From: Octopus vulgaris
Lineage: Eukaryota
Assembly: GCA_951406725.2 (NCBI GenBank)
Contig: OX597837.1
Span: forward strand, 20,460,001 to 20,524,000
Length of the DNA stretch: 64,000 nucleotides
Direction of reading: 5' to 3'
In this document: piece after piece, positions 1,180 to 56,970 of the stretch
Layout: each line of letters opens with the position of its first letter
Position numbering within the stretch: position 1 is the stretch's first letter
Made by a program: the position numbers and the translations under genes
The notes under the pieces: model-generated
Told to the model about the DNA's origin: nothing
The model's database searches: none
What the model saw: the letters and a program-made list of their open reading frames with translations, nothing else

Positions 1180-1765
1180 AGGTGCAGGAGTGGCTGTGTT
1201 GTAAAAAGCTTGCTTCCCAACCACATGGTTCTGGGTTCAGTCCTACCGGGTGGCACCTTGGGCAAGTGTCTTTTACTAAAGCCTTGGGCCAATGAAGGCC
1301 TTGTGAGTGGATTTCGTAGATGGAAACTGGAAGAAGTCCATCATATATATATTTTGGCAAGGTTGCAAAAGCAATGAAAATTTTGGAAGAAAAAATATAA
1401 ATAAAAAATGAGGGGAAATCGAACCAGTGAGTGTGTTAGATAATAAGGCATTAAGATAATATGACATAATTCACTTGAACACATAAAGAATCTTGCAAAC
1501 CAGATACAAAAACAAAGTATGTATATATATATATATATATATATATATATAGATATAGATATATTTCATTGTGTCGGTTTGTCCCCCACCAACACTTGAC
1601 AACCAGTGTTGGTGTCCCCATAACCTAGTGGTTCAGCAAAAGGGATCAATAGAATAAGTACTAGGCTTTAAAAAATAAGTCTTGGGTTCGATTTGTTCAA
1701 TTAAATCCTTTCAAGGTGGCGCTCCAGCATGGCCATTGTCAAATGACTGAAACAAGTAAAGGAGT
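1180..1765 (+). mobile_element. SINE family A, split by an insertion in its internal TA tract
   Basis: 5' half at 1180-1345 and 3' half at 1565-1765 (ends AAATGACTGAAACAAGTAAA). An unrelated segment at 1350-1520 lies between them. Confidence 0.85.
1350..1520 (+). mobile_element. Short TA-embedded element, probable Penelope pLTR derivative
   Basis: Flanked by (TA)n. GGTTGC-AAAA-GCAAT-GAAA resembles hammerhead stem II plus GAAA. Homologous to the reverse complement of 54745-54860 (GGGAAATC..ACCAGTGAGTGTGT..AATAAGGCATT). Confidence 0.55.
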
Positions 1766-2019
1766 AAATACTGACCATACTATTAGTGCTTGAAGAAGAT
1801 GTATACTGCATTATCGATATTCTTATACAGTGTTATTGGTATTCTTATTGTATCTTACTGTAAAAATATTCCTATGCATTTGTGCATATAACTACCACAC
1901 ACATAAAGACCTTACTTTGTGTATATCCATAGATATTTCTCGGTGCAGGAGTGTATGTCCGTGTGTCTATGAGGCCATGTATGATTGTGTGTCTCTATAC
2001 ATGTGCCTACATGAATATA

Positions 2020-2330
2020 TCTATTATATAAAATCCGTTTTGTCTGTCTGTGTGTGTGTCTTCTAGGATCTTGGGTATCCTCCATCCGATTGTGCTCAAA
2101 TTTGATATGTAGATACCGACAGCATCAGGGCATGTATAAGTCTTGAAAAAATTACAAAAATCATCTCCAGGTGAAAATCCAATCGATAAAGCCGTTTTTG
2201 TCCCGCTTTTCTTCCGTCAACCTGTACATAACTGCACCTTCCATTTTTTGTTGTTTTTGTACTGCTTAAAGGCACATTTCTTTCCTGCCAAGCTTACTGT
2301 TTAAACACTCTTAAAATATTGCTTTAGAAT
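2020..2330 (+). mobile_element. Non-autonomous Helitron, 5' fragment
   Basis: A|TCTATTATATAAAA start followed by CTGTCTG/TG repeats and CCGATT..TCAAATTTG, typical of Helitron-type 5' ends. No 3' CTAG end identified. Confidence 0.55.
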
Positions 2331-2366
2331 CTACTCTCTCTTCTTTTACTGCTTCGAGGATATTTT

Positions 2367-3183
2367 ACTGGGCCCATATGACCCTTAAGCAGGGCCCATA
2401 TGCCCCTTGAGTGTCCATATAAGATTTTGCTGTTAAAATTTACGTGCAATAAATTGTTTATACTTTTACAATGGACAAAATATTTTGACAATTATTCCTT
2501 CACTCTTTTACTTGTTTGAGTCATTTGACTGCAGCCATGCTGGAGCACTGCCTTCAGTAGAGCAAATCGACCCCAGGACTTATTATTCGTAAGCCTAGTA
2601 CTTATTCTATCAGTCTCTTTTGCCGAAGCGCTAAGTTACGGGGATGTAAACACACCAGCATCAGTTGTCAAGTAATGTTGGGGGGGATGGACAAACACAG
2701 ACACACAAACATGCACACACACACACATACATATATATATATATATATATATATATATATATATATATATATATAGGGAGAGTTTACAAAAAAAAACAAA
2801 AGATGAAGACAGGTGGTGTACAAAACAAACAGATGTATTAGTATAACGCTCAGGAATAGAAAAAATCTTTTACGTTTCGAGCCTACGCTCTTCTACAGAA
2901 AGGGACACAGAAAAAACAAGGAGAGAAAAAAAAATGTGTAGTGGCTAACGATCTATCATGGCGACATGTATATATATACATATATACAACGGGCTTTTTT
3001 CAGTTTCCGTCTACCAAATCCACTCACAAGGCTTTGGTCTGCCTGAGGCTATAGTAGAAGACACTTGCCCAATCCTAAAAAAATAATTAATTATAAAAAT
3101 ATAATAGAATGGCTATAGAGGTCCAGTAGAGCAAAATAGGAAACAAAGAGGTCCACAGGCAAAAAATGGTTTAGAACCACTGC
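2367..3183. mobile_element. hAT-type MITE interrupted by SINE A (2502-3072), itself interrupted by a hammerhead element (2776-2965)
   Basis: MITE parts 2367-2500 and 3073-3183 (ends GGTTTAGAACCACTG) match the family at 51928-52187. The SINE A reverse-complement text lies between them. Confidence 0.7.
2867..2902 (-). ncRNA. Minimal type I hammerhead ribozyme motif (one core deviation)
   Basis: Minus strand: CTTT-CTGTAGA-A-GAGC(GTAG)GCTC-GAAA-CG-TA/AAAG. Stem I is CTTT/AAAG, stem II is GAGC/GCTC and stem III is the palindromic ACGT. Core reads CUGUAGA versus canonical CUGANGA. Confidence 0.65.
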
Positions 3184-3489
3184 TGTAGATGGTGGTGGTG
3201 CTTGTGTAGTGAAGAACGATGCACTTTTAAAAAAATTGGTTTAAAATCTGTTTCCTTTTTCTGTTTTGCTTATGTTATTACCATTGACATTCACCATCAG
3301 CAGTAACATCATTAATTGTCTTTCCAGGAAGAATTAGTTAAAAAAAAAAAATAAAAAAAACAACAAAAAAGCCCCAAATCAGGTCAACAATTATAATCAC
3401 TTAAAGTAAAAACAAGAATCAATTAACAAAAACTCCCAAAAAATAAATACATAAATAAATAAAAACATTAACAACAAAAAAATGTTTCT

Positions 3490-54035: not shown

Positions 54036-54699
54036 GCTGGTGATGATGGTGGTGGTGAGAAACAGAAAGATAGCAAGGTTGCAGGGTGGTGGGGAAGGAT
54101 AAAGTGATTGGTTTAATGATGATGATGATGATGATGGTAGAGGTGGTGGTGGCAGTAGAAGTCGTAGTGATAGTGGTGGTGCAGCAGTGGCAGGATGGAA
54201 TCAACTGACACATCTTCCTTCATCCTTCCTGCACTACTTCGATATTCTGAAAGTGAAAGTGAAAGCAGAAAAAAAAAACACAGGGAAGAACACTCCCCAC
54301 CCCCACATCCCTAACCCCGATCCGCACCTAAGTCATGAAAAAAAAAAAGAACTGGAAGATAGTAGGAATGGCAGTGTCATCAGAAGGTAGAGTTGGTGAT
54401 GTCGGGTGGTGAATCAGAAAAAAAGTCCTATATCAGGAGGAGGCAGAGGAGGAGGAGAACAACGATGATGATGATGACAATGAGAGACTGACTGCTCTGA
54501 AACTTCTACATGAAAAAAACAAAAAACAAAAAAAAAGTTAATTCGCTGTGATTAATTTGAATTAAGTTACTTAGAGTTTTAATTAGTTGAATGGTTGGTT
54601 GAGGTAGTTGACACCTCTCAATTGCAGTCAGCAGCACTTCATATTCCAGGGACAAAATGAAACAATATGGTTGTGTGTGTATTTCATTTGCAAGATTCT

Positions 54700-55105
54700 T
54701 TATGTGAATTTGTGTGTTGAAACATATTTTATTGTGCCTGAGAAGAGTCATTCTCTTTGAATGCCTTATTAATTTGACACACTCACTGGTCTGATTTCCC
54801 TTCATTCACTTATTCATTTCTACTAAAATTTTTGTTGCGTCTTGCAACCTTTTCAATAGTTCTTGACTCTGACCATTATCCGAAAAGTGGCCAGCAAGCC
54901 CTGACAGACGATCAAACCCGTCTCTTAATGGTATAGAGTACTCAGCTGGAATTTGAGCGATGCATGGTTTAACTCTCTGTAGAGGCTTGTTAACCACCTT
55001 TTTCTATCTTATAAGGGTATTTACCTGATTTTCTAAACTGTCCTGTGTCCAAGGATTCTTTTATTTTCTGTAGAATACCTACTCACTTGGTGCTTATACG
55101 TTTGT
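54700..55105 (-). mobile_element. pLTR-like element with degenerate hammerhead (54822-54862)
   Basis: Minus strand: CTA-TTGAAAA-GGTTGC(AAGAC)GCAAC-AAAAA-TTTTAGTAG, with AATAAA downstream. Homologous to 1350-1520. Confidence 0.5.
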
Positions 55106-55129
55106 TTATAAAATGTTCTCATATATATA

Positions 55130-55640
55130 CTCTTTTATTCTTTTACTTATTTCAGTCATTTGCCTGCGGCCATGCGGCAGCACTGCCTTCAAGGGCTTTT
55201 AGTCGAAGAAATCAACCACAGGACTTACTCATTGTAAGCCTCTTTTGCTGAACCGCTAAGTTACGGGGACGTAAACATCCCAACATCAGTTGTCAAGTGA
55301 TGGCAGGGGGACAAACACAGACACAAATCCACACACGCATAAATATATATATGTGTGTGTGTGTGTGTGTGCACGCGTGTATATATATAAGTGTGTGTGT
55401 GTGTGTGTGTGTGTGTGTGTGTGTGTATGTATGTGTGTATATATATATATATATATATATATATATATATATATATATATATATATATATACACATACAA
55501 CCCGCTTCTTTCAGCTTCCATCTATCAAGTCCACTCACAAGGCTATAGTAGAAGACACCTCCTTAAGGTCCCATGCAGTGGGACTGAACATGGAAACATG
55601 TGGTTGGGAAGCAAGCTTCTTACCACACAGATATGCTTGT
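55130..55640 (-). mobile_element. SINE family A
   Basis: Tail to head reverse complement with an expanded internal microsatellite. Confidence 0.88.
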
Positions 55641-55889
55641 ACATAAAAACTTAACGTTTCATGGTAGTAATAAAAAATGACCAACTCTTTGGGTATCAGG
55701 AAAAGAATGGAGAGAAAACAAGATGGCTTCTTTCTTATAAGGAAAGCTTAACCACAATCTGTCAGTAGAGGTCACATTATTGCAGTGATAAACTCAGTGG
55801 CAACAGAACAAACACTTCATGTGGATATTACTGCTGTTTAGTCAATGAAGTGTGGTACGGAAAGAGTTTAATGTCTGATGGTCAGTTAT

Positions 55890-56970
55890 GGTCAAGCAAA
55901 TGCAGAGATATCTTAGTGACAACAGATAAATGCCATTGAGATGCAAGAATTGAGGACAAATATTACAGCTTAGCCTAGGGTGGCATAGCAAGGTTATCTA
56001 TCAGTGGACAATGATTTGAAATGCATCAAAATTGCATATCTTTTATGACAACAATATGAAATGCCATTTTTTTTTTATTGATGAATATTGCATGCTGTTG
56101 GAACATGAGCAGCCCTTCCTGGAAGCAGAGTTGAAAATTACAAGTGCTGGGTGAATAAGGTGAGGTCCTGCCAAGTATATTCCAATTGATGTTGGGTGAG
56201 GTGTTGCTGTAGTTACAGATGAAGCAAGAAAAGGAGGTAGCATTATCCTGTCCTTACATTTGATGGAATGCATATGCTGTAAGTATCTTCCCTTGATACA
56301 AGACTGATACAACAAGTAGTTCCTTGTTATATCATCAGGTAGTGTAAGGGTAGCTCTATAGGCTACAGCTTTCAAGAGGCAGACTTCTCTCAGTGGACAG
56401 CTGGTAGGGTGGGATGGAGACTGTGCAGATGTGTGTTTGCTGCTGTTATAGTGTGCAATGTTAGAGGCAATGCTATCTAAATATGAATAGCTACCCATAA
56501 CATCATAGGATTTAAAAAGTTTATATCTATGAAAACAAGGAAAATGTTGCCTGTGTTCAGAAAGCGCTTGGCTAGATTGGTAGAAATAGCTTGGTTGATT
56601 GGAAGATTATACCAGATAACATTTCTTTTCTAACTCTCTTATGGTTTGAAGATGCAGGTGAGGTATCCTCTATGTATAGTAACTTATCTGTAAGGCCACT
56701 CTTCATTAGAACCTCATTATAATGGGGTGCTGCCATGTCAGAAAAATGGTTAGAGATTTCAATAACAGTTGGTGGTTAGAATGTTTATGAATGTAAACTG
56801 CTTCTTCATTAGGTTTTCTGTAGTATTTGGCGTTTATCTGTCTTGAAGTCTAGGGTAACTTCTGTTAAGTTGACCTTTGCTAAGCTGGTGGTGACAGTTA
56901 TAGATAAGCTGGACACTTTTGAAGATGATGAGTTTCTTCCCAAACTTATCAATGTCAAGGTCACTCATAT
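55890..56970 (-). pseudogene. Decayed Penelope-like retroelement: RT thumb, linker and C-terminal GIY-YIG endonuclease
   Basis: Minus strand, in order: DKFGKKLI..KVNLTEVTLD (VNFLDV-like), YRKPNEEAVYIHKHSNH, RKRNVIWYNLP (IWFNPP-like, 56600-56630), SYSYLD, CPLREVCLLKAVAYRATLT..RNY..RYLQH. Frameshifts and stops present. Confidence 0.82.

Follow-up and report, generated by a model that had tools for sequence, protein, structure and literature searches.

Short segments in TA tracts of an Octopus vulgaris locus as probable truncated ends of Penelope-like elements, the most abundant with a variant hammerhead motif

Introduction

Within a 64,000-nucleotide stretch of the Octopus vulgaris genome (assembly GCA_951406725.2, contig OX597837.1, positions 20,460,001 to 20,524,000; hereafter the window), 13 short segments adjoin tracts of the dinucleotide TA, raising the question of what kind of element left them there. 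An initial annotation, made from the letters alone, had read them as many families of Penelope-like elements (PLEs), truncated or non-autonomous, several of them bearing hammerhead ribozyme cores, and had proposed that a decayed PLE coding relic in the same window could represent the class that mobilised them. Here we argue that seven of the 13 are probably short, 5'-truncated 3' ends of several PLE families (stubs of the pseudo-long terminal repeat, or pseudo-LTR), inserted into TA tracts by the PLE endonuclease and reverse transcriptase (RT), and that the most abundant of these families has a hammerhead motif of putative activity with U at core position 6 (U6). The other six segments were not assigned to any class.

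Published work provides the setting for this question. In the O. vulgaris assembly, 190 families of PLEs together account for 6.83% of the sequence (PMC13282606), and about 4.4 kb would therefore be expected in 64 kb, close to what the segments and the relic occupy; the density of segments is ordinary, and the window is a known kind of PLE debris. Hydra-1_Obim, which carries a hammerhead, Naiad_Obim and Naiad_Ovul are all given with a preference for (TA)n, and inverted 5'-truncated copies, together with a 30-40-bp tail at one end, are described as general PLE features (Craig et al. 2021, PMC8557442). AT-rich DNA is cut by the protein of an anole PLE, and reverse transcription begins downstream of the hammerhead, at sites that match the genomic tail; the hammerhead of this element requires the protein, and insertion in vitro does not depend on it as a ribozyme (PMC11167929). 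Minimal hammerheads cleave weakly, as dimers (PMC4209133), and Naiads thrive without hammerheads (PMC8557442).

Results

Segments and their TA flanks

All 13 segments, each referred to here by its approximate start, exist as annotated and adjoin a TA tract, in a window of 37% GC in which microsatellites and short interspersed nuclear elements (SINEs) are plentiful. At least three TA units lie within 20 nt of one end in every one of the 13, and likewise in an unlisted hairpin at 7136-7246. Across these 14 measured segments, which cover 3,525 of the 64,000 bases, eight have TA (at least three units) at both ends, compared with 8.3% of the window's 20-mers; because the segments were chosen for this very property, the figure is circular as a proof of targeting. 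TA tracts are landing places common to several kinds of element, including a miniature inverted-repeat transposable element (MITE) with terminal inverted repeats (TIRs) at 23196-23333. The proposal that some inserts lie within SINE A, an abundant SINE of the window, holds for 1350 and 2776, which interrupt copies at the internal TA tract, between head and tail halves, and probably also for 31460 (SINE tail match at 31166-31373; head part recognised by eye). The DISSIMILARITY claim holds for most segments and fails for 1350 and 54700, which are one family on opposite strands (78% identity over 106 nt, E 9e-16); 7261 and 22512 have only a 21-nt word in common.

Two kinds of anatomy carry the PLE reading. 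Three segments (2776, 9885 and 25657) combine a hammerhead-like motif with a tail that runs to TA, and four of the 13 (7261, 22512, 31460 and 42877) consist of an inverted copy with unequal arms and an extension on one side. In favour of PLE stubs, the distance from the predicted cut to the TA tract, 96 nt in 2776 and about 70 nt in 9885, compares with 32-113 nt at loci of the Hydra clade of PLEs (9 of 33 motifs, those with a TA run within 130 nt); in favour of PLE-derived fold-backs, the same inversion is found on a Hydra-like coding piece at 1000-1182.

The 2776 family and its U6 core

The 2776 element, which is likely to be the pseudo-LTR or 3' end of a PLE, contains a motif made up of a 4-bp stem I, CUGUNGA, a bulged A, a 4-bp stem II, GAAA and a palindromic ACGU stem III, with a cut predicted between 2871 and 2870. 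This motif agrees with the published consensus for minimal hammerheads (a U-rich 5' side, CUGANGAH, G...C, GAAAN, a palindrome and UH; PMC4209133) everywhere except at position 6: the GAAA, the UH site, stem I, a stem II with G10.1-C11.1, the unpaired base after A9 and the palindromic stem III are all present, and the core reads CUGUNGA in place of CUGANGA. In a mismatch-tolerant score, for which the maxima of 12 shuffles ran from 15.7 to 20.2 and 32 of 33 intact controls scored, at 24.7-36.4, the 2776 motif (2898, minus strand) reached 21.2, the highest value in the window and above all 12 shuffle maxima. An alternative register with the core starting at 2895 was rejected, as a base that varies four ways would then fall on the conserved U4.

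We aligned read contigs from runs of four organisms to 2755-2995. The contigs matching the family numbered 25,836, 22,610, 9,460 and 10,058 per organism, and the family is plainly very abundant and common to all four, although the summed depth of aligned contigs is not a copy number. Neither of the two families that were checked is single-copy, 2776 being repeated in the reads and 1350/54700 within the window. Another letter reached at least 15% in some run at 16 positions of this interval, three of them within the 36-nt motif: 2894 (N7), where all four bases occur and the three alternatives total 27% in run X1 and 93% in run X13; 2871 (H17), which is A or U (U in 2-44%); and 2886, a loop II base (5-24%). 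The chance of three variable sites all falling among the motif's seven free positions is 0.005, calculated post hoc. At 2895, core position 6, no alternative letter reaches 15% in any of the four runs, with coverage about as deep as at the neighbouring base; U6 is therefore the norm of the family and not damage in the window's copy, with the proviso that relatives with A6 and unlike flanks may have been clipped before position 6. Furthermore, coverage over the motif exceeds that of the sequence on either side in three of the four runs (in X13 its summed depth is 5.1M, against 1.2M and 0.2M; X1 has no such peak), and alternative upstream sequences appear, among the loose ends listed, at 2903 and 2913. 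Eleven joints found in a single contig were treated as noise, and the reads were cut at flanking repeats, so that the ends of the element are not readable from them.

Scans with the U6 hammerhead motif gave no matches in viral contigs and prokaryote genomes, as expected for an animal repeat. In the hammerhead core, A6 completes the uridine turn. Judged from its sequence, the family-wide U6 core would be a modest new hammerhead variant with putative self-cleavage. The literature listings searched yielded no paper describing a U6 PLE hammerhead, though variants of these hammerheads are the main subject of Lünse et al., who may already cover it, and U6 strings had no match in one of the two supplementary files of PMC4209133. 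We tentatively suggest, as a reasonable possibility that we would not yet call probable, that this PLE-derived, abundant family keeps the hammerhead fold under selection in at least four organisms with a CUGUNGA core that departs from the conserved A6. On this view the core might be a new variant that is active as a dimer or with the help of protein; or catalysis might have been silenced, the hammerhead being retained as a structural signal that the PLE protein recognises. The element in question may be non-autonomous. The family matters because PLE hammerheads cleave weakly, one of them needed protein and could be spared in insertion in vitro, and Naiads do well with none: a very successful family in which the fold is conserved and one core base is changed provides a direct natural test of selection for cleavage as opposed to selection for shape alone. 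The family further suggests that a large class of motifs in such genomes may escape standard CUGANGA descriptors.

Alternatively, the U6 motif may be a dead hammerhead, the product of a founder mutation in one master element that has been carried along without function. We find this doubtful, if serious: a natural A6C variant cleaves at less than 0.1 per min and changes at position 6 lower activity (PMC3088659), and hammerhead mutants had no effect on anole PLE insertion in vitro (PMC11167929), yet the variation confined to free positions and the better preservation of the motif than of its flanks across four organisms point to selection on shape.

A different possibility, which we regard as somewhat unlikely, is that elements of the 2776 family, and perhaps of others, are non-autonomous PLE derivatives of fixed length that resemble retrozyme monomers and are moved in trans, rather than truncations of autonomous elements. 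The very high abundance of the family, in which no coding sequence was found, and the several upstream variants joined to one common motif and tail, seen as loose ends, would fit such derivatives. Retrozymes are reported to occur as dispersed monomers and to derive from PLEs (10.64898/2026.07.22.740005), and non-autonomous Chlamys elements have been reported as well (PMC8557442). Against this, the window holds no tandem copy, and the summed depth drops in the 5' direction, a pattern that truncation would explain, as would divergence among subfamilies or edge effects. For no segment did the analysis favour a non-autonomous element over a truncated one.

Other hammerhead-like motifs

CUGANGA/GAAA hammerhead cores had been reported for several segments, which proved to be an overstatement. 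Credible motifs occur in three of the 13, none of them both canonical and intact: that of 2776 is nearly intact, 25657 pairs an intact core with a stem II of 78 nt, and in 9885 the core is mutated. The strict pattern CTGA.GA-(4-40 nt)-GAAA has eight matches in the window, none of them in a listed segment. Half or broken cores are present in 12490, 42670, 54700 and 7261 (the last with CTGATAA and no GAAA), and the motif scans of the window found no core in 1350, 21755, 22512, 31460, 42877 or 43533. No hammerhead family appeared among the best 150 of 414 Rfam matches to the window, nearly all of which were microsatellite-driven microRNA models and all of which lay under the gathering score. The downstream AATAAA was given no weight because the DNA is only 37% GC.

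The 25657 motif has intact CUGAUGA and GAAAC, with AATAAA directly behind. A post hoc descriptor that allows a long stem II gave four sites in the window compared with 0.48 +/- 0.71 per shuffle (40 shuffles), and two of the four, 25826 on the plus strand and 2898 on the minus strand, lie inside listed segments. The 9885 motif (9994, minus strand) had the second-highest mismatch-tolerant score, 18.1. Chance matching in AT-rich DNA is, in our view, an unlikely source of the hammerhead-like strings outside 2776: window-wide counts under the tolerant score are close to those of shuffles at most thresholds (46 against 44.2 at score 10) and 9994 falls in the null range, but the window's two best sites both lie in listed segments, though the 14 segments amount to only the small share of the window given above, and 25826 is one of the four descriptor sites where about half a site was expected.

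Fold-backs

The long fold-backs at 7261, 22512, 31460 and 42877 are real, and we found another at 7136. The one-sided extensions measure about 80-95 nt in 7261, 180 nt in 22512, 42 nt in 31460 and 56 nt in 42877. That these fold-backs and the six remaining segments are MITEs, other TA-targeting DNA-transposon remnants or template-switch hairpins rather than PLEs is quite improbable, for although a clear TIR MITE sits in TA at 23196-23333, 7136-7246 is symmetric, 21755 starts like a MITE terminus and the four long fold-backs lack a hammerhead, the arms of 7261, 22512, 31460 and 42877 meet centrally, end unequally and have their T-rich strands outward, whereas MITE arms sit at the two ends, and symmetric TIRs with TA at both ends were found at 23196-23333 and not in these four.

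Two fold-backs that otherwise differ (7242-7433 and 22690-22815) have in common, close to the centre of the inversion, a word of 21-26 nt that recurs in another repeat (28180-28205). Truncation or template switching may occur preferentially at this word. Inside the MITE at 23196-23333, whose TIRs are about 30 bp long, lie 58 nt from the tail of SINE A (23247-23303), as though the element had picked them up.

Coding remnants of Hydra-type PLEs

The relic with RT and GIY-YIG sequence was confirmed on the minus strand (56968 to about 55997). This remnant sets in directly behind the catalytic YRDD motif of RT, is interrupted by stops and frameshifts, and cannot be active. A look-up of 54500-57100 listed no RNA source with this sequence, a result that says nothing about expression. 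A 119-aa relic frame retrieved 11 relatives at E up to 0.001, and one of these retrieved 1,412 proteins, 120 of them listed; among the relatives listed, the one animal protein with a name comes from Argonauta hians. The 75 longest relatives were combined in a profile, which matches 56913-56068 on the minus strand across three frames, and tblastn extends the match to 56968-55997. These 75 full-length relatives contain RW[K/R] (73), DK[T/S] (75), CxCX5C (72), CxxC (74) and CxH (70), the motifs by which the Hydra clade is defined (PMC8557442). In the relic the RWK/DKT part is missing, and the CxCX5C linker keeps just its last Cys, with PL and CL behind. With RT sequence followed by a C-terminal endonuclease and with its similarity to Hydra-type proteins, the relic is, by sequence, a Hydra-type PLE, a dead member of one TA-targeting clade and, as compared by eye, probably of another family than Hydra-1_Obim. 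The label Nematis was rejected for the relic after the motif comparison with PMC8557442. A word-based search with a 187-aa relic frame found no relatives, and Pfam gave nothing credible for 10 frames of the relic and 54700, for 11 homologs or for three full-length relatives. Both ends of the relic abut SINE-like copies, and a possible half hammerhead behind it (55684-55648) is not significant (E 0.32 in 601 bases).

A second, smaller Hydra-like fragment lies at 1027-1182 (profile E 1.2e-4; tblastn 38% over 52 aa), directly ahead of a SINE A head, and 37 nt of it (1139-1175) recur inverted at 1000-1036. Hammerheads of the clade were modelled from 37 motifs aligned from 77 loci related to the relic; on these source loci the covariance model gave 87 matches in 66 of the 77, the 37 training sequences included. 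At three Hydra loci (L003:2371-2550, L043:2499-2964 and L065:2264-2575) two hammerhead-bearing ends stand opposite each other on the two sides of a TA run, so that PLE ends accumulate there tail to tail in TA tracts.

Other features of the window

The features are collected in Table 1. For the 65-aa open frame of the 54700 segment (54809-55003), relatives were searched for and none was found. The 43533 segment and its TA tract are bracketed by a direct repeat of 57-60 nt (82-86%; 43431-43490 and 43722-43781) that resembles an unusually long target-site duplication. No more than about 40 bases separate the ends of segments 21755, 22512, 25657 and 54700 from the 3' part of a SINE A copy in reversed orientation (21877, 22880, 26140 and 55131). 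Further TA-adjacent segments lie at 9732-9870 and 19730-19910, with neither hammerhead nor fold-back seen, and two more sit in TA tracts at 26255-26455, inside a SINE A copy, and at 42360-42550; the ends of these last two resemble Tc1/mariner termini. In addition, a tandem array of units of about 75-95 nt was recognised by eye at 28620-29140, and a GC-richer stretch of trinucleotide repeats at 50740-51180 may be part of a host exon or untranslated region (UTR).

Table 1. Positions and anatomy of the segments, motifs and coding remnants in the window
Position	Strand	Feature
1000..1182	+	Second Hydra-like remnant with C-terminal endonuclease piece (1027-1182); absent from the initial annotation
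1352..1520		Insert in internal TA tract of a SINE A copy; family of 54671-54856
2775..2961	-	Short T-rich element in internal TA tract of a SINE A copy; very abundant family
2867..2902	-	Hammerhead motif of the minimal type I form, with U6 at window 2895; predicted cut 96 nt ahead of TA tract
7136..7246		Symmetric hairpin, 55-nt arms (47/55), adjoining 7261; absent from the initial annotation
7260..7511		Head-to-head inversion, arms 7242-7337 and 7338-7433 (85/96); right arm continues to TA tract
9884..10188	-	Element whose hammerhead is degenerate (core from 9994, mismatched at two positions, stem III ACAGCUGU); tail reaches TA after about 70 nt
12487..12616	-	TA-flanked segment; CTGAAGA and GAAT present, without valid hammerhead fold
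21754..21875		Segment with TA on one side, without hammerhead; start like terminus of MITE at 23196
22513..22840		Head-to-head inversion 22690-22815 (87%), left arm about 180 nt longer to TA, without hammerhead
25657..26122	+	Element with short 5' inversion and hammerhead-like motif (25820-25925)
31479..31841		Head-to-head inversion 31521-31659 / 31696-31847 (134/153), one-sided tail of about 42 nt, without hammerhead
42671..42841	-	TA-flanked segment, first half of core only
42876..43125		Head-to-head inversion 42877-42928 / 43018-43069 (96%), one-sided tail of about 56 nt, without hammerhead
43533..43725		Segment with ACAGCTGT, without core, between 57-60-nt direct repeats
54640..55117		Longer copy of 1350 family, broken core-like string at about 54738, 65-aa open frame
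55640..55996	-	Probable 3' UTR of the relic, with possible worn second hammerhead half (55684-55648)
55997..56968	-	Coding remnant of a Hydra-like PLE, decayed and truncated at its 5' end, with the end of RT and the thumb, a linker and a GIY-YIG-type endonuclease at the C terminus

Discussion

The anatomy of the seven segments would follow from a simple course of PLE insertion. A GIY-YIG endonuclease would nick AT-rich DNA, and reverse transcription would begin tens to about a hundred bases beyond the hammerhead, giving the order motif, tail, (TA)n. Where reverse transcription stopped early it would leave stubs, each the first stretch of complementary DNA from an aborted insertion, and a second, inverted and truncated copy joined head to head would produce fold-backs with the tail on one arm.

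Several results weigh against a PLE origin of the segments, which we call probable. The Hydra hammerhead covariance model found nothing significant in the window (best match E 0.64), and its match at 25818-25930, over the 25657 motif, has E 5.6. When seven short motifs were folded, none was much better than its own shuffles, bar two exceptions: 7445-7505, a hairpin that is not a hammerhead (z -4.4), and, by a weaker margin, 21755-21810 (z -2.1). The score of 9994 was exceeded by the maxima of three of the 12 shuffles, and the 25826 motif, recovered by a post hoc descriptor, has a stem II of 78 nt with an unpaired base and a tail of about 200 nt. The four long fold-backs have no hammerhead in the tolerant-score scan, and only the tails of 31460 and 42877 are near the published 30-40 nt. 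Six window motifs were absent from the consensus files of Craig et al., in which line breaks may mask matches. Finally, no listed segment matches the Hydra profile or 130 proteins, other PLE clades lying outside this comparison. The proposed link of the listed segments to PLE coding sequence found no support in this comparison, nor did the idea that the family of the relic mobilised them.

Comparison with known systems places the segments among several classes of hammerhead-bearing or TA-targeting elements. The minimal hammerheads of metazoan PLEs, as described by Cervera and De la Pena (2014, PMC4209133), resemble the 2776 motif in their short stem I, the unpaired base after A9, G10.1-C11.1 and the palindromic stem III, and the window in occurring mostly as single dispersed copies, ascribed to truncated PLEs, of many families per genome. 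The core variant named in that source is U3-A8, and the 2776 family differs from it in having U at position 6. The Hydra clade of PLEs with a C-terminal endonuclease (EN+), which includes Hydra-1_Obim, combines hammerheads with (TA)n targets (Craig et al. 2021, PMC8557442), and the full-length relatives of the relic carry the motifs of this clade; a Hydra stem III, however, is usually 8-10 nt long, compared with the 4-nt ACGU of the 2776 motif. The Naiad PLEs of Octopus are described with a (TA)n preference, inverted truncated copies and tails but no canonical hammerhead (PMC8557442), and they are a possible source class of the fold-backs that lack hammerheads; comparison by eye revealed no similarity between the 3' ends of Naiad_Obim or Naiad_Ovul and the window segments.

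Non-LTR retrozymes (Cervera and de la Pena 2020, PMC7229834; Li et al. 2026 preprint) are, like the segments, short, non-coding, hammerhead-bearing and of high copy number. They are described as tandem units with mostly canonical type I hammerheads, whereas the window segments are single and their hammerheads minimal or decayed; in the window, tandem units with a complete hammerhead were not found and no hammerhead-bearing segment has a second copy. The A6C variant of phage Bcep176 (Perreault et al. 2011, PMC3088659) is also changed at position 6, but it is one phage sequence, with C and with low measured activity, whereas in the 2776 family U is fixed in a very abundant animal repeat.

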